The position numbers were made by a program, and so were the translations under genes. A stretch of DNA of 60,373 nucleotides, counting the filler. It is 6 parts of 6 records of this genome, joined end to end, with 100 filler letters (N's around TTAATTAATTAA, not from the genome) between each part and the next. Parts side by side here need not be neighbours in the genome. Positions count along the whole stretch, not along the records: positions 35,085 to 53,306 come from SRR20825019_217; 5 more parts are not named here. One strand, 5' to 3'. The notes beneath the pieces were generated by a model, which did no database searches, was not told the origin of the DNA, and worked only from the letters and a program-made list of their open reading frames with translations. Below, in pieces: positions 37,749-50,144 of this stretch (positions are counted from its first letter, which is position 1; each line of letters opens with the position of its first letter).

Positions 37749-37756
37749 TATATTTG
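37749..37756 (+). promoter_or_regulatory. Candidate Bacteroidetes sigma-A -7 element
   Basis: TATATTTG fits TAnnTTTG, upstream of the transferase-PNP-arsM operon; no well-spaced -33 element seen. Confidence 0.4.
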
Positions 37757-37860: not shown

Positions 37861-38475
37861 TTGAGCAAAAACCTACTTTTGATCCTTACCCGTAACCCCG
37901 AACTTGGTAAATGCAAAAGCCGATTGGCCGCCAAAGTGGGAGACCAAGCAGCTTTGGACATTTATAACTTTTTATTGGACAAGACCGTGTCGTTTACCAA
38001 AGATTTGAAGGTCGAAAAATGGGTCTATTATTCAGAAACCATTTGGATGGATGATATTTGGGACAACAAGGTCTACAAAAAGAAACTTCAGGTCGGGAAA
38101 GATTTAGGCGAACGGATGATAAATGCTTTCGATGAAGGATTCATGGCGGGTTTTGAGAACATCATCATTATAGGCAGCGATATGTTTCACCTGGACCAAA
38201 CCGATTTGGAAGCAGCTTTCTCCAAACTAATGGACCACGACTTTGTTTTGGGGCCCGCAGAAGATGGTGGATACTACCTTTTGGGGATGAAATCCTTAAA
38301 AAAGGAACTGTTCCAAAACAAAGAATGGGGCACAAATACTGTACTTGCTGATACATTATCCGACATAAAAGATGAAAAGTTTGTGCTTTTAGATGAGAAG
38401 AATGATGTGGATTACTACGAAGACATTAAAGACATTGAGGCCTTTGCGCCTTTCTTAAAACATATGGAAGAATGA
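37861..38475 (+). CDS. DUF2064/TIGR04282-like transferase (arsenosugar-cluster associated)
   Basis: RNPELGKCKSRLA, Q.G.DLGERM, IIIGSD, VLGPAEDGGYYLLG, WGT..VL, DVD; start TTG 37861 (alternative 37807). Confidence 0.88.
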   Translation: MSKNLLLILTRNPELGKCKSRLAAKVGDQAALDIYNFLLDKTVSFTKDLKVEKWVYYSETIWMDDIWDNKVYKKKLQVGKDLGERMINAFDEGFMAGFENIIIIGSDMFHLDQTDLEAAFSKLMDHDFVLGPAEDGGYYLLGMKSLKKELFQNKEWGTNTVLADTLSDIKDEKFVLLDEKNDVDYYEDIKDIEAFAPFLKHMEE

Positions 38476-39287
38476 CAAAAATACAGATAGCAGAATCCGT
38501 TGAATACTTAAAAAAACGAGGTTTTGAAACACCAGAAATTGGTATAGTTCTAGGTACGGGATTAGGACAATTGGTGGACAACATAGAAAACCCCATTGAG
38601 GCCCATTACAATCATATTCCACATTTCCCATTGGCAACGGTGGAATTCCATACGGGCAAATTGATCTATGGCACGATCGAGGGCAAAAAAGTCATCGTAA
38701 TGCAGGGACGTTTTCACTTGTATGAAGGTTACGATTTTATCGATATAACCTACCCCATACGTGTAATGCATCAATTGGGAATCAAAAAATTGTTCGTGTC
38801 CAATGCTGCGGGAGCCATCAACCTGAAATTTAAAAAAGGGGAAATTATGTTGATCGAAGATCACATTAACCTTCAAGGGGGTTCACCTTTGGCATTTAAA
38901 AATGTATCCGAGTTCGGCGACCGATTTGTGGATATGAGCGAGCCCTACGACCCAGAAATGCGTAAAAAAGTTGAAGCCATAGCTGCTCGCGAGGATATTT
39001 CTTTGAAAAAGGGAGTCTATGTCTCCGTGGTAGGACCACAACTGGAAACCAAGGCAGAATACCGAATGCTCAAGATCATGGGTGCCGACGCCGTGGGAAT
39101 GAGCACCGTCCCCGAGGTAATTGTTGCGAATCATTTACGACTACCCATTGTAGCGGTATCGGTATTGACCGATGAATGCGACCCCGACAACCTGCAACCT
39201 GTCGAAGTACAGGAAATTTTGAAGATTGCAGGGCAAACGGAACCCAAAATGATCAAACTATTCAAAGAACTAATCAAAGAACTATGA
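38472..39287 (+). CDS. Trimeric-family purine nucleoside phosphorylase, Asp variant at the base-specificity site
   Basis: IVLGTGLG, QGRFHLYEG, NAAG, GPQLETKAE, DAVGMSTVPE, then VLTDEC where 6-oxopurine PNPs have ITN; overlaps both neighbours by 4 bp. Confidence 0.95.
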   Translation: MTKIQIAESVEYLKKRGFETPEIGIVLGTGLGQLVDNIENPIEAHYNHIPHFPLATVEFHTGKLIYGTIEGKKVIVMQGRFHLYEGYDFIDITYPIRVMHQLGIKKLFVSNAAGAINLKFKKGEIMLIEDHINLQGGSPLAFKNVSEFGDRFVDMSEPYDPEMRKKVEAIAAREDISLKKGVYVSVVGPQLETKAEYRMLKIMGADAVGMSTVPEVIVANHLRLPIVAVSVLTDECDPDNLQPVEVQEILKIAGQTEPKMIKLFKELIKEL

Positions 39288-40249
39288 GCTATTTAGACGC
39301 CACCCAAGACCTATACAAACAAGCGGCCCTAACACCCGATGTGGGGCTTTGCTGCACCACCAACCCCATTTGGCAGTTCCCCGGGCTTTCCATTCCCAAG
39401 ATCATGCAAGAGATGAACTATGGCTGTGGAAGCACCGTTTCCGCACAGGATTTGGTCAACAATCCCAAAATTCTATATGTTGGTGTAGGAGGCGGAATGG
39501 AACTGCTGCAATTCTCTTATTTTTCCAGACAGATGGGTGGTGTAACCGGGGTGGATTCCGTAGATGAGATGTTGGAGGCTTCCCGAAAGAACTTCAAAAT
39601 AGCCGAAGAAGAAAACGATTGGTTCAAGAGCGAATACGTGAATTTGGTGAAAGGTGATGCATTGAACCTTCCCGTGGAGGATGAAAGTATCGACGTGGCA
39701 GCACAGAATTGCCTTTTCAATATTTTTAAGATAGATGACCTTAAAAAAGCCGTTTCCGAAATGTACCGCGTACTGAAGCCTCACGGAAGATTGGTGATGA
39801 GCGATCCCATTTGCGAGCAGCCCATGAGCGGCGAGCTGCGCAACGATGACCGCTTGAGGGCACAATGTCTGAGCGGTAGCATTCCCTTGAAAGATTATGT
39901 AAAAGTGTTGACGGATGCCGGTTTTGGCACCATAGAAATCAGAGGCAAACGATCGTACAGGGTGTTATCGCCGAACCATTACCCCACCAAAGAGCTCATT
40001 CATATTGAATCCATCGAAATAGCCGCCATAAAAGACCCGATGCCAGCCGATGGTCCCTGCGTTTTTACGGGAAAAACAGCTATTTATTTTGGAGACGAGG
40101 CATATTTTGATGATAAGAAGGGACATGTACTACTACAAAACCAACCTTTGGCGGTATGTGACAAAACAGCTGCTGCCTTGGCTAGTGCTTCGGATGAAAT
40201 CTTTATAAGTGAAAGTACATACCACTACAACGGTGGCGGGTGTTGCTAG
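39284..40249 (+). CDS. arsM: Arsenite S-adenosylmethionine methyltransferase, cyanobacterial/arsenosugar-type ArsM
   Basis: Start ATG 39284 (MSYLD); GLCC, MNYGCG, LYVGVGGG, AQNCLFNIF, LRAQCLSG, AVCDKTA, C-terminal GGGCC; closely resembles Synechocystis ArsM as I recall it. Confidence 0.9.
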   Translation: MSYLDATQDLYKQAALTPDVGLCCTTNPIWQFPGLSIPKIMQEMNYGCGSTVSAQDLVNNPKILYVGVGGGMELLQFSYFSRQMGGVTGVDSVDEMLEASRKNFKIAEEENDWFKSEYVNLVKGDALNLPVEDESIDVAAQNCLFNIFKIDDLKKAVSEMYRVLKPHGRLVMSDPICEQPMSGELRNDDRLRAQCLSGSIPLKDYVKVLTDAGFGTIEIRGKRSYRVLSPNHYPTKELIHIESIEIAAIKDPMPADGPCVFTGKTAIYFGDEAYFDDKKGHVLLQNQPLAVCDKTAAALASASDEIFISESTYHYNGGGCC

Positions 40250-42306: not shown

Positions 42307-43320
42307 TTAAAGACTTGATTTTTTGACCTGGGTGTACTGCCTTCTAATGATGGATTCCGCTGGCTTATTTTGGGGCGTAAATCGATTGTCCGCATGTCCG
42401 CCAACTTGATCGTGCTGCATGAACCATTTCCAGACAAATCCCCCGGCAAACCAATCCTCGCTCCAGAACTCATTAAAAAGAACCTGTGTGGCATCGGCTT
42501 GTGCCTTGAGGTTCACATTCATTTGGTTACGGTCCACCAACCAAGGCTTTTTGCCCGTAAAATCCATGCTTCGGTACCCAAACTCTGTAAAAAGAATAGG
42601 TTTATCTTCCTGTTTGGCAAGTTCCCGCATTTTGGTCTTCCAGGGTTGCCAACCTTCCGTTAGCGTTTCTATCGTAGGGTTTTCCCGTTCGCAAAGCGGA
42701 AAATAGGCGTTCACACCAATAAAATCCAAATCCGACCAAAAAGGTGTTTTTGCATACTCGTCCCAGTTGGCGGCATAGGTAATCTTGCCCGTGTACACTT
42801 CTCTTACCTTTTTAATAAGATCGTTCCAAAACCCAGGCCGTTCGTTCACAAAGGTTTTTAGCTCAGTTCCTATACAAAATATGTCGCTTTGGGTTTCTTC
42901 CGCCATCTCGGCATAAAGTAGAATAAATGCTTCGTAGGATGCTTCCAGTTTTTCCCAATCTTCTTCTGAAGGCATTTTCATGTTACCAGTAAATTGACCA
43001 TCAAAAATCCATATTTGGGGTTTTACCATCACGCTTACCCCATTTTGATGCAACTTTTCTATGTACTGCTTTGCTCCTTCCCTGCGCTCACCATACCATT
43101 GCCTATCCGTATTAAAAATCAGTTCGGGGGAATCCAAATCCCTAATGAATCCAAACGGCATCACGGCGGCATAATTGGCGCCCACTTTAAGAACGGGGTC
43201 GATATGGTGTTGGGCGACTTCCTCCCCCGAGGCGACAAAACTGACACCATTGACTTTATCAAACTTGCTAGTTGCGCAAGAGGCAAAAACAAGCACACAT
43301 AAATAAATCAGCTTTTTCAT
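42307..43320 (-). CDS. Glycoside hydrolase family 113-like (beta-mannanase-like) lipoprotein
   Basis: Start ATG 43320, lipobox FASC; MVKPQIW, CIGTEL (acid/base), TYAANWDE, IGVNAYFPL, LFTEFGYRS (nucleophile), GGFVWKW, KPAE. Confidence 0.85.
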   Translation of the reverse strand: MKKLIYLCVLVFASCATSKFDKVNGVSFVASGEEVAQHHIDPVLKVGANYAAVMPFGFIRDLDSPELIFNTDRQWYGERREGAKQYIEKLHQNGVSVMVKPQIWIFDGQFTGNMKMPSEEDWEKLEASYEAFILLYAEMAEETQSDIFCIGTELKTFVNERPGFWNDLIKKVREVYTGKITYAANWDEYAKTPFWSDLDFIGVNAYFPLCERENPTIETLTEGWQPWKTKMRELAKQEDKPILFTEFGYRSMDFTGKKPWLVDRNQMNVNLKAQADATQVLFNEFWSEDWFAGGFVWKWFMQHDQVGGHADNRFTPQNKPAESIIRRQYTQVKKSSL

Positions 43321-43448
43321 AATGATTGCGAACGCTTTAAAAATAATCATTTTAAAACATCATCCGACCGCCAAATTCTTATTAAATTTCATCTTTCTGT
43401 TAAGTTTTTACGATAAACCTCGACACATAGAACAATCAAACCCAACCC

Positions 43449-44798
43449 ATGGAGCACATTGTCATTATTGGAAATGGAATTGCAGGTGTAACCGCTGCAA
43501 GGCACATTCGAAAGCTTTCCGACAAAAAAATCACCATTGTTTCCGCAGAATCCGAGTACTTTTTCTCCCGAACAGCTTTGATGTATGTGTACATGGGCCA
43601 CATGAGGTTTGAGCATACCCAACCCTACGAGAACCACTTCTGGAAAAAGAACCGAATAGATTTGGTACAAGCGTACGTGACCAAGGTCAACACCCAAGAA
43701 AAATTGCTTCATCTTGATGGTGCTCCAGACCTCGACTACGATAAATTGATTATTGCCACAGGATCCAAACCCAATAAATTCGGTTGGCCCGGACAGGATT
43801 TGGATGGCGTTCAAGGGCTTTATTCCAAACAAGACCTGGAACTGCTGGAAGACAACGCACCCAATAACAAGGTTTGCAAACGGGCAGTGATCATTGGTGG
43901 TGGGCTTATTGGCATCGAATTGGCCGAAATGCTACGTACTCGTGATATCCCAGTGACTTTTTTGGTTCGTGAAAACAGCTTTTGGAACAGTGTTTTGCCT
44001 TCTGGCGAATCAGAAATGATCAACGAACATATCCACGAGCACCATATTGATTTGCGGTTAGGTGCTTCGCTCAAGCAAATCAATCCTGATGAAAATGGAA
44101 GGGTAAAATCCGTGACACTGGCCGAAACTGGAGAAGAAATTGAATGTGACTTGGTGGGATTGACCACAGGTGTTACCCCAAATATTGATTTTTTGAAAGA
44201 CTCGGATATAGAATTAGGTAGAGGAGTAAAGGTAAATCGGTTTTTGGAGACAAATGTTGAACACGTATACGCCATTGGCGATTGTGCGGAACAGCACGAA
44301 GCCATTGGAAATCGACGCCCCATTGAAGCTGTTTGGTACACGGGCCGTATGATGGGCGAAACCCTGGCCCAGACCATTTGTGGCAATCGAATGGAATACA
44401 ACCCCGGACACTGGTTCAACTCCGCCAAGTTTCTGGACATTGAGTACCAAACCTATGGTTGGGTGTTCCCAGAGAGAAAGAAAAAAGAAAACGAGGCCCA
44501 TTTCCATTGGAGACATTCCAAAGAAAAACTTTGTATCACCATTGCGTTTGATAAGGATTCTGAAACTGTGTTGGGCATCAACACCTTTGGCATTCGTTTG
44601 CGGCACGAAGTTTTTGATAGATGGCTCAGTGAAAAAAGAACCATTGATTATGTGATGGAACATCTTAGAGACGCCAATTTCGACCCTGAGTTTTATAAAA
44701 GTTTTGAACCTCAGATCGTGTCGAAATACAATTCCAATTTCGGAAAATCCATCAACCCGAAAAAGAAAAACCTAAAACGCATCTTCCAACTGAATTGA
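43449..44798 (+). CDS. NAD(P)/FAD-dependent oxidoreductase (NADH oxidase/rubredoxin reductase-like)
   Basis: IIGNGIAG, LIIATGS, IIGGGLIGIE, YAIGDCAE. Confidence 0.92.
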   Translation: MEHIVIIGNGIAGVTAARHIRKLSDKKITIVSAESEYFFSRTALMYVYMGHMRFEHTQPYENHFWKKNRIDLVQAYVTKVNTQEKLLHLDGAPDLDYDKLIIATGSKPNKFGWPGQDLDGVQGLYSKQDLELLEDNAPNNKVCKRAVIIGGGLIGIELAEMLRTRDIPVTFLVRENSFWNSVLPSGESEMINEHIHEHHIDLRLGASLKQINPDENGRVKSVTLAETGEEIECDLVGLTTGVTPNIDFLKDSDIELGRGVKVNRFLETNVEHVYAIGDCAEQHEAIGNRRPIEAVWYTGRMMGETLAQTICGNRMEYNPGHWFNSAKFLDIEYQTYGWVFPERKKKENEAHFHWRHSKEKLCITIAFDKDSETVLGINTFGIRLRHEVFDRWLSEKRTIDYVMEHLRDANFDPEFYKSFEPQIVSKYNSNFGKSINPKKKNLKRIFQLN

Positions 44799-44905
44799 TT
44801 GGTTGATGGCTCAGGGTTAATGGTTTATTAAAGAGTTTAAATTGTACGAAAAACTGGAGAGGTCATGTCCCATTCGAAAATATCAGAACAAAGAAACAAC
44901 AAACA

Positions 44906-46516
44906 ATGAACAGTCAAACCTATCATAAAAGCATGGCCCTGACAGGCGAACCACCAAAAAGTTTGAGCATAAGTCAAAAACTCGCTGTCTTTTTGGGATT
45001 ATCTGGGCTGGGCATTCTGCTTTTGGCCGTTTTCAATGTCAATTTTCCGAATAGGACCTTATGGTTGACCTTGTCTCTTTTGGCTATCACCGTCGGGATT
45101 GTTTGGTTTTCCTGGGATGCCTATTCCAAAAAAATCCCTGGGATCAAAAATGATGGTGTTTGGTTCAAGTCGATTTCCAGTCGCGGTTTATGGGGATGGG
45201 TGGCAGGTTTGTCCTTGACAGGTTTCTACATTGTACTCTATTTTTATCCTGAATATCTCGGTCTGGTGAACGATGGCGACAATAAAGGGGTTATTGGGCT
45301 TTTTGACCCGCTCAGTAAATTTTTGAGCGGCAACCCCGCCAGTCAGTGGTTTGTTTACGGCACACTTTATACGGTGGCCATTTTGGCCTTTGGCATCAAG
45401 TTCCTTTGGAAATATCGCCATAACCGATACGAAAGGTTGCGCACTTGGAGCGTCATGTTCTTTCAAACCGCTTTTGCGTTCATCATCCCAGAATTGATGG
45501 CCCGTTTGAACGGCGATAAAATTTTGGACGGGGGCAGTTTGCCTTATTACGACCTCAAAAATATTTGGCCGCTCAACTATTATAATTTTGAAGGGTATCG
45601 CATTAAAGCGTTTTTAAGTTCGGGGGAAATCGGTTTTGCCCTATTGATCTTTGGCATCCTCTCCATTTTTGTGATAACTCCCATCCTTACCTACAAATAT
45701 GGTAAAAGATGGTACTGCTCTTGGGTCTGCGGGTGTGGTGGATTGGCAGAAACCGCTGGGGATTCATTCAGGCAGTTGAGCGATAAATCTACATTTGCAT
45801 GGAAAGTAGAACGCTGGGTGGTGCACAGTGTCGTAGTTTTTGTGACTTTGATGACCACCGCGGTCATTTATTCCTACTTGGGAACGGATACCAGTAAATA
45901 TTGGCTGACCAAGAGCTCTTTTTTAATCGGGGTGGCCGTTTTACTGACCTTGGTGTTCGGTTGGGCCATGATTTTTAAAAGAAATCAACTCCAGAAAGAT
46001 GCGCAGTACGGAGCCATCGGTTATTTTGTGATCATTATAGCGCTGATCGGGTTTCATTTTTTTAGCGGGGACGGACAAATTTTTCTTTTTAAATCCGAAA
46101 CACTTCGTAAATCGTACTCTTTCTTGATCGGAAGCATTTTTTCTGGAGTCATCGGAACAGGGTTCTACCCCATCTTTGGGAGCAGGGTGTGGTGCCGCTT
46201 CGGTTGCCCCATGGCCGCCATTTTAGGGTTTCAGCAGAAATTGTTTTCCAGGTTCAGAATTACCACCAATGGTGGGCAATGTATTTCTTGTGGCAACTGT
46301 TCGGTATACTGCGAAATGGGCATCGATGTGCGGGCCTACGCCCAGAAAGGAGAGAACATCGTTCGGTCGAGCTGTGTGGGATGTGGAATTTGCTCGGCAG
46401 TTTGTCCACGGGGCGTCCTTAAACTGGAAAACGGTCCGTTGGAAGGTAGAATCGATAGCAATCAAGTGCTGTTGGGCAATGATGTGGACCTGATGACATT
46501 GGTGAACAAAAAATAG
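44906..46516 (+). CDS. Polytopic membrane 4Fe-4S protein (NapH/MauN/CcoG-like polyferredoxin)
   Basis: Many TM segments; YCSWVCGCG, WCRFGCP, CISCGNCSVYC, CVGCGICSAVCP. Confidence 0.9.
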   Translation: MNSQTYHKSMALTGEPPKSLSISQKLAVFLGLSGLGILLLAVFNVNFPNRTLWLTLSLLAITVGIVWFSWDAYSKKIPGIKNDGVWFKSISSRGLWGWVAGLSLTGFYIVLYFYPEYLGLVNDGDNKGVIGLFDPLSKFLSGNPASQWFVYGTLYTVAILAFGIKFLWKYRHNRYERLRTWSVMFFQTAFAFIIPELMARLNGDKILDGGSLPYYDLKNIWPLNYYNFEGYRIKAFLSSGEIGFALLIFGILSIFVITPILTYKYGKRWYCSWVCGCGGLAETAGDSFRQLSDKSTFAWKVERWVVHSVVVFVTLMTTAVIYSYLGTDTSKYWLTKSSFLIGVAVLLTLVFGWAMIFKRNQLQKDAQYGAIGYFVIIIALIGFHFFSGDGQIFLFKSETLRKSYSFLIGSIFSGVIGTGFYPIFGSRVWCRFGCPMAAILGFQQKLFSRFRITTNGGQCISCGNCSVYCEMGIDVRAYAQKGENIVRSSCVGCGICSAVCPRGVLKLENGPLEGRIDSNQVLLGNDVDLMTLVNKK

Positions 46517-46564
46517 ATTTCCCTTCTTTTTGAAGATTTTCAATCAAATATCCTTGGAAAATTT

Positions 46565-46572
46565 TAGTTTTG
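46565..46572 (+). promoter_or_regulatory. Candidate internal -7 promoter element before the glycosyltransferase genes
   Basis: TAGTTTTG fits TAnnTTTG, about 36 bp upstream of ATG 46609. Confidence 0.35.
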
Positions 46573-46608
46573 GCGAGCTCTAACACTAACCAAAACAACA
46601 TCTGACCA

Positions 46609-47298
46609 ATGGCGGATATCAAGGTCATCATCCCAGCGATCAACGAAGGAGATTCCATTGGTTTGGTGGTCTCGGAAATTCCCGACCATGTGTCCGAAAT
46701 TGTGGTCGTGGACAACGGTTCCGAAGACGATACCGTAGCCAATGCAGAAAAAGCTGGCGCCACTGTAATCACGGAAAACCGCAAGGGCTATGGGTTCGCC
46801 TGTTTAAGAGGATTAAATTACATATCCGAACGATCTAAAACACCCGACATCATCGTATTTATCGACGGAGATTATTCAGATTATCCAGAGGAATTGGATA
46901 AGATTGTCGCCCCAATTTTGGAAAATGACATCGATTTTGTGGTGGGAGCGCGAAAAAAATCACTTCGCGAACCTGGTTCCATGACCCCACAGCAGGTTTT
47001 TGGGAACCAATTGGCCACATTTTTAATGCGATTGTTTTTTAGGTCAAAATTTACGGATCTAGGACCTTTTAGGGCGATAAAATATGAAAAGCTCAAAGAA
47101 TTAAGAATGCAGGACACCACTTATGGCTGGACAGTGGAAATGCAATTGAAAATTTTGAGAAAAAAAATGTCATATATCGAAGTACCAGTGCGTTACAAAC
47201 GAAGAATCGGGGTGTCAAAAGTATCAGGTACGGTAAAAGGTACTATATTTGCTGGCATAAAAATATTAGGTTGGATCTTTAAATACAGTTTAAAATAA
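46609..47298 (+). CDS. GT2 glycosyltransferase, polyprenol-phosphate sugar synthase (DPM1)-like
   Basis: IIPAINE, VVDNGSEDDT, GYG.AC, FIDGDYSD, TDLGPFRAI, YGWTVEM, R..G.SK. Confidence 0.9.
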   Translation: MADIKVIIPAINEGDSIGLVVSEIPDHVSEIVVVDNGSEDDTVANAEKAGATVITENRKGYGFACLRGLNYISERSKTPDIIVFIDGDYSDYPEELDKIVAPILENDIDFVVGARKKSLREPGSMTPQQVFGNQLATFLMRLFFRSKFTDLGPFRAIKYEKLKELRMQDTTYGWTVEMQLKILRKKMSYIEVPVRYKRRIGVSKVSGTVKGTIFAGIKILGWIFKYSLK

Positions 47299-48782
47299 TG
47301 GGACTTGCTATCGCTTACATCATCATTGCTATTTACAGTACAGCCTTAATTTTGATATTCTTTTACAGTCTGGCCCAGTTGAATCTACTGGTCAATTATC
47401 TGGGCTATAAAAAACGGAACGAGGAAGCTCCAAAATTTAATCTTCTCGATCCCAAAGAAATCCCGTTCGTTACCATTCAGCTTCCCATTTACAACGAGGA
47501 ATATGTAATGGAACGTTTGTTGGAAAACATTGCCAAGATAGAATACCCAAAAAGCAAACTGGAAATCCAAGTGCTGGACGACTCAACGGACGATTCCGTA
47601 GTGGAAACCGCCAGAAGGATCGAGGAACTCCAAGAAACTGGATTGGACATTAAGCATATCCGTAGGGAAAACAGACAAGGCTATAAAGCAGGTGCCCTCA
47701 AAGAAGGACTGGAAATTGCCAAAGGTGATTTTATCGCCATTTTTGATGCCGACTTCCTTCCAGAAGCCGACTGGCTCAAAAAAACAGTTCCTTATTTCAA
47801 GGATGAGGAAATCGGTGTGGTACAGACCCGCTGGGGACACATCAATAGGGATTACTCCACTTTGACCCGTATACAGGCCTTTGCTTTGGATGCCCACTTT
47901 ACTTTGGAACAAGTTGGGAGAAACTCCAAAGGACACTTTATCAACTTTAACGGTACCGCAGGCATCTGGAGAAAAGAATGCATTTTCGATGCGGGCAATT
48001 GGGAGGGCGACACCCTTACCGAAGACCTCGATTTGAGCTACCGTGCCCAATTAAAAAACTGGAAGTTCAAGTATTTGGAAGATGTGGAAACTCCCGCAGA
48101 GCTTCCCGTAGTGATCAGCGCCGCTCGTTCACAACAGTTCCGTTGGAATAAAGGTGGTGCCGAAAACTTCAGAAAAACGGTATTGAGCGTTATTACCGCC
48201 AAAAACATACCTTTCAAAACAAAATTCCATGGGGTAATGCACCTCTTGAACAGCTCTATGTTTCTTTGCGTGTTCACCGTAGCCTTGTTGAGCATTCCCA
48301 TGCTGTACATTAAAAACACCTATGGCCATTTGGGTTGGGTGTTCGAGGTGACAAGCTTCTTCATTCTAAGTACCATCATCTTGTTTGTATGCTATTGGTT
48401 TACGTACAAAAGTATTCAGGGCAGTAGTTTCGACAATTTCGTGGATTACATCAAACTGTTCTTTACCTTTTTCTCCGTGGCATTGGGCTTTTCTTTGCAC
48501 AATACCGTCGCAGTTTTGGAAGGACATTTGGGCAAACGAAGTGAATTTGTAAGAACTCCAAAGTTCAACATCAACAGTATTAAGGATACCTGGAAAGGCA
48601 ACAAATATTTAACCGATAAATTGTCGCCAAACATGATCTTGGAGTTTGCCTTGATGATTTATTTCCTTTTTGGGATGTACAGCGCCATACCATTGAACGA
48701 CTACGGATTGTTCCCGTTCCACTTAATGTTGTTCCTAGGCTTTGGATTTGTATTCTTTAAATCCTTAACTTCCAAGGCATAA
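47298..48782 (+). CDS. Processive GT2 synthase similar to plant CslA/CslC glycan synthases
   Basis: QLPIYNE, QVLDDSTD, GYKAGALKEG, IFDADF, HFTLEQ, FNGTAGIWR, TEDLDL, QQFRW (D,D,D,QxxRW); N- and C-terminal TMs. Confidence 0.9.
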   Translation: MGLAIAYIIIAIYSTALILIFFYSLAQLNLLVNYLGYKKRNEEAPKFNLLDPKEIPFVTIQLPIYNEEYVMERLLENIAKIEYPKSKLEIQVLDDSTDDSVVETARRIEELQETGLDIKHIRRENRQGYKAGALKEGLEIAKGDFIAIFDADFLPEADWLKKTVPYFKDEEIGVVQTRWGHINRDYSTLTRIQAFALDAHFTLEQVGRNSKGHFINFNGTAGIWRKECIFDAGNWEGDTLTEDLDLSYRAQLKNWKFKYLEDVETPAELPVVISAARSQQFRWNKGGAENFRKTVLSVITAKNIPFKTKFHGVMHLLNSSMFLCVFTVALLSIPMLYIKNTYGHLGWVFEVTSFFILSTIILFVCYWFTYKSIQGSSFDNFVDYIKLFFTFFSVALGFSLHNTVAVLEGHLGKRSEFVRTPKFNINSIKDTWKGNKYLTDKLSPNMILEFALMIYFLFGMYSAIPLNDYGLFPFHLMLFLGFGFVFFKSLTSKA

Positions 48783-48791
48783 ACAAACACC

Positions 48792-50144
48792 ATGCAATCT
48801 TATTGGCGACTGCACAAATACCCGATACTTTTTGCTGTCGCTTGTATTCTGTTCTACTGGAGTTTTGCATACAACTTGGTCCGTACGGACTTCATTAAGT
48901 TGTTCATGCTCTATGGGGCACTTTTTTACCTTACTTCCAAAATTATCCAGTTCGAAAAATGGAACTTTAAGTTCCTATTGGTCGTTGGAATACTTTTTCG
49001 GTTGGTATTTTTGATTGCCGAACCCAATCTTTCACAGGATTTCTATAGGTTCATTTGGGATGGTGAACTCATCAAAAACGGCATCAACCCGTATTTGTAC
49101 ACACCCGACCAAATTATGGAGCAGGGCACGGTATCATTCCCCAGCATGAAGGAACTGCATGAAGGAATGACCGACCTCAATGCACGTCACTACAGCAATT
49201 ATCCCCCAATCAACCAAGTTCTTTTTGCCATTGCATCAATTTTGGGAGGAGGAAGCGTTTTAGGTTCCACCATTGCCATGCGGTTGATAGTGATTCTTGC
49301 GGATTTAGGTGTGCTTTATTTTGGAAGAAAGCTTTTACAGCACCTGAACAAGGCCAACCATTTGGCATTTTGGTACTTTTTGAATCCATTGGTCATCATC
49401 GAACTCACGGGCAACCTGCATTTTGAAGGTGTAATGCTCTTTTTCTTTGTTTGGGCCCTGTATCTCATTGCCAAAAATAAATGGTTATGGTCAACCCCGA
49501 TATATGCCATTTCCATCATGGTAAAGCTAATGCCCCTGATGTTCCTGCCGCTTTTTGTAAAATACTTCGGGCTAAAAAAGAGTGTTGTTTTTTACGCTTT
49601 GATACTATTGGGGTGCGGGGCTTTGCTGTTTCCTTTTTATTCCTCCGTATTTATCGATAATTATTCGGATACCGTTGGGCTATGGTTCACCAATTTTGAG
49701 TTCAATGCCAGCATATACAATGTCGTTAAAAAGATTGCGGTCACTTATTATGAAGCCAAACCTTGGGAATTGATCGATTCCTATGGTTCAGTAATACAAA
49801 GAGTGGTGGTCGTTATCATTTTGCTGCTTGCTTTCCTTCGGAAAAACCAAAAACTGGAAAGCGTCATCACATCCATAATGTTAGCATTGGCCTGCTATTA
49901 TTTTCTCTCCAGCACCGTGCATCCTTGGTATGTGGTGTTCCTTTTGGGCATTGCCGTGTTTACCGATTACAGGTTCCCATTCGTGTGGTCCTTCGCCGTT
50001 GTTCTGAGTTACTATGCATATTCTAATCCCGATTACAAAGAAAACCTTTGGTTATTGGCCATTGAATACATTTTGGTAATTGGGTTTTTTATTTATGAAA
50101 TAATAGGAAGTAGGCCTAAAAAGTTATATTTCCTCAAAAAGTGA
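48792..50144 (+). CDS. GT-C fold polytopic glycosyltransferase (polyprenol-phosphate-mannose-dependent, GT87-like)
   Basis: LSQDFYRFIWDG, NPY, YPP, LNPL..IE..GN.HFE, K..P, VHPWY; about 11 TMs. Confidence 0.8.
   Translation: MQSYWRLHKYPILFAVACILFYWSFAYNLVRTDFIKLFMLYGALFYLTSKIIQFEKWNFKFLLVVGILFRLVFLIAEPNLSQDFYRFIWDGELIKNGINPYLYTPDQIMEQGTVSFPSMKELHEGMTDLNARHYSNYPPINQVLFAIASILGGGSVLGSTIAMRLIVILADLGVLYFGRKLLQHLNKANHLAFWYFLNPLVIIELTGNLHFEGVMLFFFVWALYLIAKNKWLWSTPIYAISIMVKLMPLMFLPLFVKYFGLKKSVVFYALILLGCGALLFPFYSSVFIDNYSDTVGLWFTNFEFNASIYNVVKKIAVTYYEAKPWELIDSYGSVIQRVVVVIILLLAFLRKNQKLESVITSIMLALACYYFLSSTVHPWYVVFLLGIAVFTDYRFPFVWSFAVVLSYYAYSNPDYKENLWLLAIEYILVIGFFIYEIIGSRPKKLYFLKK

Follow-up and report, generated by a model that had tools for sequence, protein, structure and literature searches.

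Why would a purine nucleoside phosphorylase (PNP) be encoded between two genes of arsenosugar metabolism? The question is raised by a three-gene operon in the 60,373-nucleotide stretch of DNA analyzed here (the window), in the part that comes from SRR20825019_217. An initial annotation proposed that this PNP removes adenine from the arsenic nucleoside made by the radical S-adenosylmethionine (SAM) enzyme ArsS. We found that a role of the PNP in the pathway is well supported by gene context, and we favor, with moderate confidence, a reaction in which it would phosphorolyse dimethylarsinoyl-adenosine to a ribose-1-phosphate that is then activated by the CofC-like TIGR04282 protein encoded beside it. 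The operon comprises the following genes:

37861..38475, + strand: gene 1, TIGR04282/DUF2064 CofC-like transferase, probably a nucleotidyltransferase, with a TTG start
38472..39287, + strand: gene 2, trimeric-type PNP of the ars-linked clade
39284..40249, + strand: gene 3, arsenosugar-type arsenite methyltransferase ArsM (NF038099)

Direct reading, translation, and family scores bore out the initial description of a transferase, a trimeric-type PNP, and arsM that overlap by 4 bp each, the shared ATGA lying at 38472-38475 (genes 1 and 2) and 39284-39287 (genes 2 and 3). Gene 1 scored 206.7 bits against TIGR04282 (cut-off, 134) and matched Pfam DUF2064, with a weaker match to the Pfam CofC guanylyltransferase family (1.9e-5); it is kin to 3cgx, a “putative nucleotide-diphospho-sugar transferase” (E value, 1.5e-18), and the alignments of its relatives open at the same position as its start. 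Gene 2 exceeded the cut-offs of three PNP models (NF006054, 353.1 versus 218; TIGR01697, 307.3 versus 197.1; TIGR01700, 314.1 versus 293.35), and gene 3 scored 564.3 bits against NF038099 (AsSugarArsM; cut-off, 400). Because a hybrid histidine kinase gene lies upstream and an amidase-like gene lies downstream on the opposite strand, the operon is limited to these three genes. Neither ArsS nor TIGR04169 was found in the neighborhood of the operon in the window.

The arsenosugar set defined in NCBIfam consists of ArsS (TIGR04167), TIGR04169, TIGR04282, TIGR04283, and AsSugarArsM (NF038099), of which the window carries TIGR04282 and AsSugarArsM, both above cut-off. As named, the set holds no phosphorylase, whereas in the window and in most of the Flavobacteriaceae genera sampled a PNP lies between TIGR04282 and ArsM. 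The closest public loci belong to Flagellimonas (Flavobacteriaceae), with a PNP identity of 97 to 98%, which upholds the earlier assignment of the DNA to a heterotrophic-type flavobacterium. TIGR04282 was immediately upstream of the PNP in all 80 close relatives and ArsM immediately downstream in 64 of them; given this and the adjacency across genera described below, the gene arrangement is far beyond chance. ArsS was within 8 kb of the PNP in none of the 80, and it is separated from the operon in Flagellimonas. In 19 of 40 other genera examined, ArsS lay upstream of TIGR04282 at a distance of no more than about 10 kb, typically 1 to 2 kb.

The nearest genome, G001, is syntenic with the window, and 25% of sampled 31-mers are common to both. 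It encodes ArsS (TIGR04167, 447.7 bits versus 300) adjoining TIGR04169 (196.8 versus 120) at a locus unlinked to the operon, the pair being over cut-off. None of its proteins passed the cut-off for the GT2 glycosyltransferase TIGR04283 (best, 65.8 bits versus 182). On its contig C38, the ArsS and TIGR04169 pair lies beside a heptosyltransferase-like gene (L006, 8641-10152). Further along the same contig, two adjacent minus-strand open reading frames (L006, 11848-12896) each match one half of a PaaE-like ferredoxin reductase, a gene that may be split or frameshifted.

To place the operon in its family, we used one genome for each of 191 Flavobacteriaceae genera. PNP was present in 173, TIGR04282 in 153 (154 at an E value of 1e-30), ArsS in 148, and ArsM in 124, and, when the positives were compared, every ArsS-positive (148/148) and ArsM-positive (124/124) genome was also TIGR04282 positive. 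A high-similarity PNP accompanied TIGR04282 in 151 of 154 genomes, the three exceptions being 83 to 94% complete. The 37 TIGR04282-negative genomes were divided among those with a high-similarity PNP (10), those with a low-similarity PNP (12), and those with none (15). Wherever rows for both genes were listed, PNP and TIGR04282 were on the same contig and no more than 1,672 bp apart (139/139 genomes; 126 within 150 bp), and PNP and ArsM were no more than 1,210 bp apart in all 116 scorable genomes (103 within 150 bp). This family-wide adjacency makes the window operon an ordinary Flavobacteriaceae arrangement. The locus has the form that the NCBIfam-defined arsenosugar gene set usually takes in Flavobacteriaceae.

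The same counts bear on whether arsenic is involved at all. The PNP and TIGR04282 could process a non-arsenic adenosyl-derived intermediate and make some other 5'-modified ribosyl glycoside, in which case the “arsenosugar” family names overreach. TIGR04282 does occur without ArsS, in 6 of 154 family-sample positives and at least 21 genomes from across the class, and 24 of 148 ArsS-positive genera are without ArsM. We consider this explanation improbable, however, since TIGR04282 is in every ArsS-positive family genome and ArsM flanks the PNP in every scorable genus. Moreover, the ArsS chemistry that yields an arsenic nucleoside is established, as stated in extracts of PMC13598754.

A second sample covered 301 genomes from the whole class, of which 247 had a PNP match. 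Over cut-off were AsSugarArsM in 23, TIGR04282 in 70, and ArsS in 49, and all 23 ArsM-positive genomes were also ArsS positive. When coordinates were compared by eye among the best 150 of 274 PNP matches, PNP and at least one of TIGR04282, ArsS, and ArsM were no more than about 2 kb apart in at least 19 genomes from 10 families (18 without the unpublished genome G181). Outside the Flavobacteriaceae, PNP was linked to one of these three in at least 15 genomes from 9 families. The linked gene orders varied (ArsS-TIGR04282-PNP-ArsM, ArsS-PNP-ArsM, ArsS-PNP-TIGR04282, ArsS-TIGR04282-TIGR04283-ArsM-PNP, and ArsS-ArsM-x-TIGR04282-PNP), and two clusters enclose TIGR04283.

For sequence comparison we took 100 PNP genes from these matches, made up of the best 63 minus one from an unpublished genome, plus 38 hand-picked from lower rows so as to cover ArsM-positive genomes and second PNP copies; no sequence from G181 or G095 was used. 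In a quick IQ-TREE run on 100 rows, all 18 linked rows, including that of the window, fell within one 34-row clade (SH-aLRT, 99). ArsS-positive genomes accounted for 23 of the 34 rows inside this clade, the window being counted as positive on the strength of G001, and for 14 of the 66 outside it. E values to the window PNP gave no clean separation of the linked clade from other PNPs at the class level. One genome of another family, G261, has an ArsS-PNP-ArsM cluster (L198, G261:C73) whose PNP groups with those of Flavobacteriaceae, and its second PNP (L072, G261:C32) groups with its own family, a pattern that suggests lateral transfer of the cluster.

What the PNP might act on can be approached through its active site, where three codons are of interest:

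39171..39173, + strand: Asp234 codon GAT, at the Asn243 (purine-specificity) position, a class-wide trait (98/99)
39177..39179, + strand: Cys236 codon TGC, at the Val245-equivalent position
39207..39209, + strand: Val246 codon GTA, at the position of the 5'-OH-binding His257

The protein is a full-length match to the trimeric, low-molecular-mass PNPs such as the human enzyme (human chains, about 1e-64; nearest solved structure, 4lna_A, E value of 1.6e-89). Its SVLTDEC motif places Asp234 opposite the Asn of 8swu (TNMA), a solved PNP of the Asn type, and the offsets of the alignment to a human PNP chain (query 9-261 versus chain 13-272) agree with Asn243, the residue to which we take Asp234 to correspond on the assumed human numbering and motif. 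The Glu201 equivalent is E192, in PQLET, and is Glu in 100/100 aligned rows. The alignment thus confirmed the initial reading of SVLTDEC, with GAT at 39171-39173 at the Asn243 position and the Glu201 equivalent kept. The equivalents of the phosphate- and ribose-site residues His64, His86, Tyr88, Met219, and Glu201 are invariant in all 100 rows including the window, and that of Phe159 is conserved between the human and window proteins. Differences from human PNP are Asn243 to Asp, His257 to Val, Phe200 to Leu, and Val245 to Cys. The human numbering was checked against an active-site residue list in an extract of PMC9916683; the roles of Asn243, Glu201, and His257 follow extracts of PMC9916683 and PMC4308819, the latter giving His257 as the residue that binds the 5'-OH. 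The window PNP has Asp234 and Val246 in place of the Asn243 and His257 signature of 6-oxopurine-specific PNPs. Among solved PNPs, its top matches, 4lna and 8swt, share the Asp at the Asn243 position, and 4lna, which reads TDLC and has Leu in place of His257, belongs to the same broad type. The human enzyme can use adenosine once Asn243 is changed to Asp.

The initial annotation treated the Asp as a mark of arsenosugar specialization. This part did not hold: the residue was present in 98 of 99 usable PNPs from across the class (row L066 was excluded because its longest open reading frame is not PNP) and in 5/5 low-similarity PNPs from Flavobacteriaceae genomes that are without TIGR04282, ArsS, and ArsM, whose sequences read TD...SHEEV-like, with Asp and His. 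Asp234 was accordingly ruled out as a marker of ars specialization. In a biased set of fused PNPs from many phyla, 113 proteins could be aligned, of which 73 had Asn and 39 had Asp, a distribution in which Asp marks lineages rather than ars linkage. Asp234 is a class-wide inheritance rather than an adaptation to the arsenosugar pathway; being so general, it is permissive for an adenine nucleoside and not diagnostic. The part of the initial proposal that makes the PNP a member of the arsenosugar set stands on comparative genomics: the genes are adjacent and co-occur, the linked PNPs share a dedicated clade, and linkage persists despite gene-order change. The sole Asn among the 99 comes from G013, a genome without ars genes, where two tandem PNP genes 38 bp apart (G013:C11:532387-534025; L025 and L055) read TDDC (Asp) and TNDC (Asn), the Asn being that of the second copy. 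These tandem genes may represent a natural split of base specificity following duplication.

Other positions do vary with linkage. At the His257 position, His occurred in 19/100 aligned rows and Leu, Ile, or Val in 81/100; the linked clade has Ile, Val, or Leu and no His, and the five PNPs from ars-lacking Flavobacteriaceae all have His. At the Cys236 position, the linked-clade rows are all Cys (34/34) and the His-type rows all Gly (19/19), with Cys in 14 of the 47 remaining rows. Leu takes the Phe200 position in 33 of the 34 clade rows. What accompanies ars linkage is a Cys236 that never varies in the clade and a 5'-OH-binding His that has been lost.

That Cys raises an alternative in which the PNP feeds arsenite to ArsM by arsenolysis, acting as a thiol-dependent arsenate reductase like mammalian PNP in vitro. 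PNP does reduce arsenate in vitro with dithiols according to an extract of PMC12608789, and the clade has its invariant active-site Cys236, but the same extract calls the in vivo relevance unknown. This explanation also accounts neither for loss of the His257-type residue nor for tight pairing with TIGR04282 rather than ArsM, the pair being without ArsM within reach in 16 of 80 close loci; we regard its probability as very nearly negligible.

Cleavage of a 5'-substituted adenosine, the reaction we favor, has a parallel in MTAP/MtnP, a member of the same superfamily. Like the window PNP, MTAP contacts the base through an Asp and has no 5'-OH-binding His. By sequence, the window protein is a PNP and not a member of the MTAP family (101 bits versus a TIGR01694 cut-off of 274.85), and an MTAP-like action on a 5'-substituted adenosine is plausible by analogy.

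A rival explanation is that of a salvage enzyme that is merely co-operonic and acts on SAM by-products or purine nucleosides (5'-deoxyadenosine, 5'-methylthioadenosine, or adenosine), perhaps clearing 5'-deoxyadenosine from uncoupled ArsS turnover. The protein passes general PNP models, its Asp and hydrophobic His257-position residue are widespread in Bacteroidia PNPs without ars linkage, and its high-similarity form is retained in the 10 TIGR04282-negative genera mentioned above. G001 has three PF01048 proteins (the operon PNP, a DeoD-type PNP scoring 358.5 bits, and a Udp-like protein), with no MTAP or MtnN among them, so the operon PNP could also handle disposal of 5'-deoxyadenosine or 5'-methylthioadenosine. 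However, the DeoD-type PNP means that general purine salvage is already covered in G001. Further, with 15 of the 37 TIGR04282-negative Flavobacteriaceae having no trimeric PNP and 12 having a different, His-type PNP, general by-product disposal is independent of this PNP, and a salvage role does not predict the adjacency to TIGR04282 seen in 139/139 genomes. We hold salvage to be a tentative possibility, clearly less probable than phosphorolysis of the arsenic nucleoside.

The partner enzyme helps to specify what such a phosphorolysis would be for. Among 120 longer relatives of the TIGR04282 protein that were listed, most carry DUF2064 plus a GT2 domain, and two fusion relatives that we checked exceeded both the TIGR04282 and the TIGR04283 cut-offs. 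The fusion ties TIGR04282 to a glycosyl transfer step, and together with the likeness to CofC it leads us to expect a sugar 1-phosphate as the TIGR04282 input, which is the product type that a phosphorylase delivers. The TIGR04282-TIGR04283 fusions (P0126, P0131, and others) are single proteins of about 440 to 450 residues that occur in many phyla. In six loci (L196, L198, L227, L237, L240, and L246) a second, weaker TIGR04282-like match lies a few kilobases from the first. Fusion partners of PNP, among 120 longer relatives listed, include DeoC, phosphopentomutase, LpxK, ThiL-like, HemZ, TrmN, and Udp proteins. One protein joining TIGR04282 to PNP (P0124) was rejected as a working fusion: about the first 95 PNP residues are missing, most likely through deletion or misassembly.

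ArsM and ArsS have been characterized in cyanobacteria. In the proposed pathway, ArsM would produce dimethylarsenite, as is known for its family, and the unlinked ArsS, paired with TIGR04169 in G001, would adenosylate it to 5'-deoxy-5'-dimethylarsinoyl-adenosine, the known ArsS reaction. The operon PNP would then use phosphate to cleave this nucleoside into adenine and 5-deoxy-5-dimethylarsinoyl-alpha-ribose-1-phosphate, with Asp234 letting the site accept adenine. The CofC-like TIGR04282 enzyme would couple the arsenoribose phosphate to a nucleotide, and a GT2 enzyme would move the sugar onto an acceptor to give a beta-riboside. Such a route is stereochemically coherent, running from beta-nucleoside to alpha-sugar-1-phosphate to nucleoside diphosphate sugar and ending, by way of an inverting GT2, in a beta-riboside. 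A natural arsenosugar is named in this beta-riboside form in the title of a published paper.

Candidates for the transfer steps lie downstream of the operon, and a possible promoter lies upstream:

37749..37756, + strand: possible Bacteroidota-type -7 promoter box TATATTTG, about 105 bp upstream of gene 1, a motif so short that chance occurrence is common
42307..43350, - strand: GH113-like glycoside hydrolase, a recurrent neighbor no more than 10 kb from PNP in 29/40 genera
43449..44798, + strand: flavin adenine dinucleotide (FAD) pyridine-nucleotide-disulfide oxidoreductase, first gene of the recurrent block, near ars genes in 23/40 genera
44906..46516, + strand: NapH-like membrane 4Fe-4S protein, 17/40 genera (count limited by the 10-kb flank)
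46609..47298, + strand: small GT2, polyprenyl-phosphate-sugar synthase-like, 12/40 genera (count limited by the flank)
47298..48782, + strand: large membrane GT2, 10/40 genera (count limited by the flank)
48792..50144, + strand: GT87-like GT-C membrane glycosyltransferase, a weak Pfam match (30.1 bits versus a cut-off of 25)

The promoter call assumes a Bacteroidota -7 consensus of TAnnTTTG. The 40 genera counted were drawn from the higher-similarity part of the list, and 10 kb was taken on either side of PNP, a flank that truncates many loci. The FAD oxidoreductase, NapH-like, and glycosyltransferase genes (43449-50144) are co-directional and recur beside ars genes in many genera, in a constant order wherever found among the 40; the two GT2 genes of the window are 6 to 9 kb downstream of the operon. 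In one genome (G445, L225) the series ArsS-TIGR04282-PNP-ArsM-FAD-NapH-GT2-GT2 is contiguous, and in a genome of another family (G088, L203) the block sits between ArsM and PNP. The FAD oxidoreductase gene is also near ars genes in G236, G206, and G088, and the GH113-like gene adjoins PNP in G279, G079, and G188. Within-family synteny is weak evidence by itself, and we take the block as a lead to the transfer steps where TIGR04283 is missing from a genome.

Several observations weigh against phosphorolysis of the arsenic nucleoside as the function of the PNP. PNPs without ars linkage can also have Asp234, a hydrophobic residue in place of His257, or Cys236, and none of these, nor Leu at the Phe200 position, is exclusive to linked proteins. 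The 10 family genomes that retain a high-similarity PNP without TIGR04282, and the lack of MTAP and MtnN among the three PF01048 proteins of G001, count here as well as in favor of salvage. At the class level, ArsS is missing from the genomes behind 11 of the 34 clade rows, and about half of the ArsS-positive genomes outside the Flavobacteriaceae are without a linked or clade-type PNP; G132 and G148, for example, are ArsS positive and carry only a His-type PNP. Among the 120 longer PNP relatives listed, there was no functional fusion to ArsS, TIGR04282, or ArsM. The presence of ArsS in the window organism is itself deduced from G001. Because genomes of the same family are kin, the family counts overstate independence and describe conservation rather than serve as a test statistic. 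Finally, the searched literature has no enzyme assay or arsenic speciation for any flavobacterium.

That literature, with supplements outside its scope, names no adenine-removing enzyme, makes no link between PNP and arsenosugars, and reports no flavobacterial arsenosugar; nor did it hold anything relevant on PDB entries 8SWT, 8SWU, 8SWP, and 4LNA. Formation of the arsenic nucleoside by ArsS is described in PMC13598754, as seen in its extracts, and the available text of a 2026 preprint on this nucleoside says only that adenine “can then be removed.” Conversion of the ArsS product to an arsenosugar is thus a late step without an assigned enzyme in the searched literature, and the PNP is a candidate for it.

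The PNP and the CofC-like nucleotidyltransferase, tightly linked across most Flavobacteriaceae genera sampled, are two candidates that can be named and assayed. With low confidence, we further suggest that most Flavobacteriaceae could carry a complete, undescribed late arsenosugar route, in which PNP would yield arsenoribose-1-phosphate, TIGR04282 would yield nucleoside diphosphate-arsenoribose, and the downstream block would use a polyprenyl-phosphate carrier to move the sugar onto an acceptor in a lipid or the envelope. If this is true, abundant heterotrophic marine flavobacteria would be, besides algae and cyanobacteria, a source of marine arsenosugars or arsenolipids. With ArsS present in 148 of the 191 genera sampled, heterotrophic marine bacteria may be of importance to the cycling of arsenic and to the forms in which it occurs in seafood.

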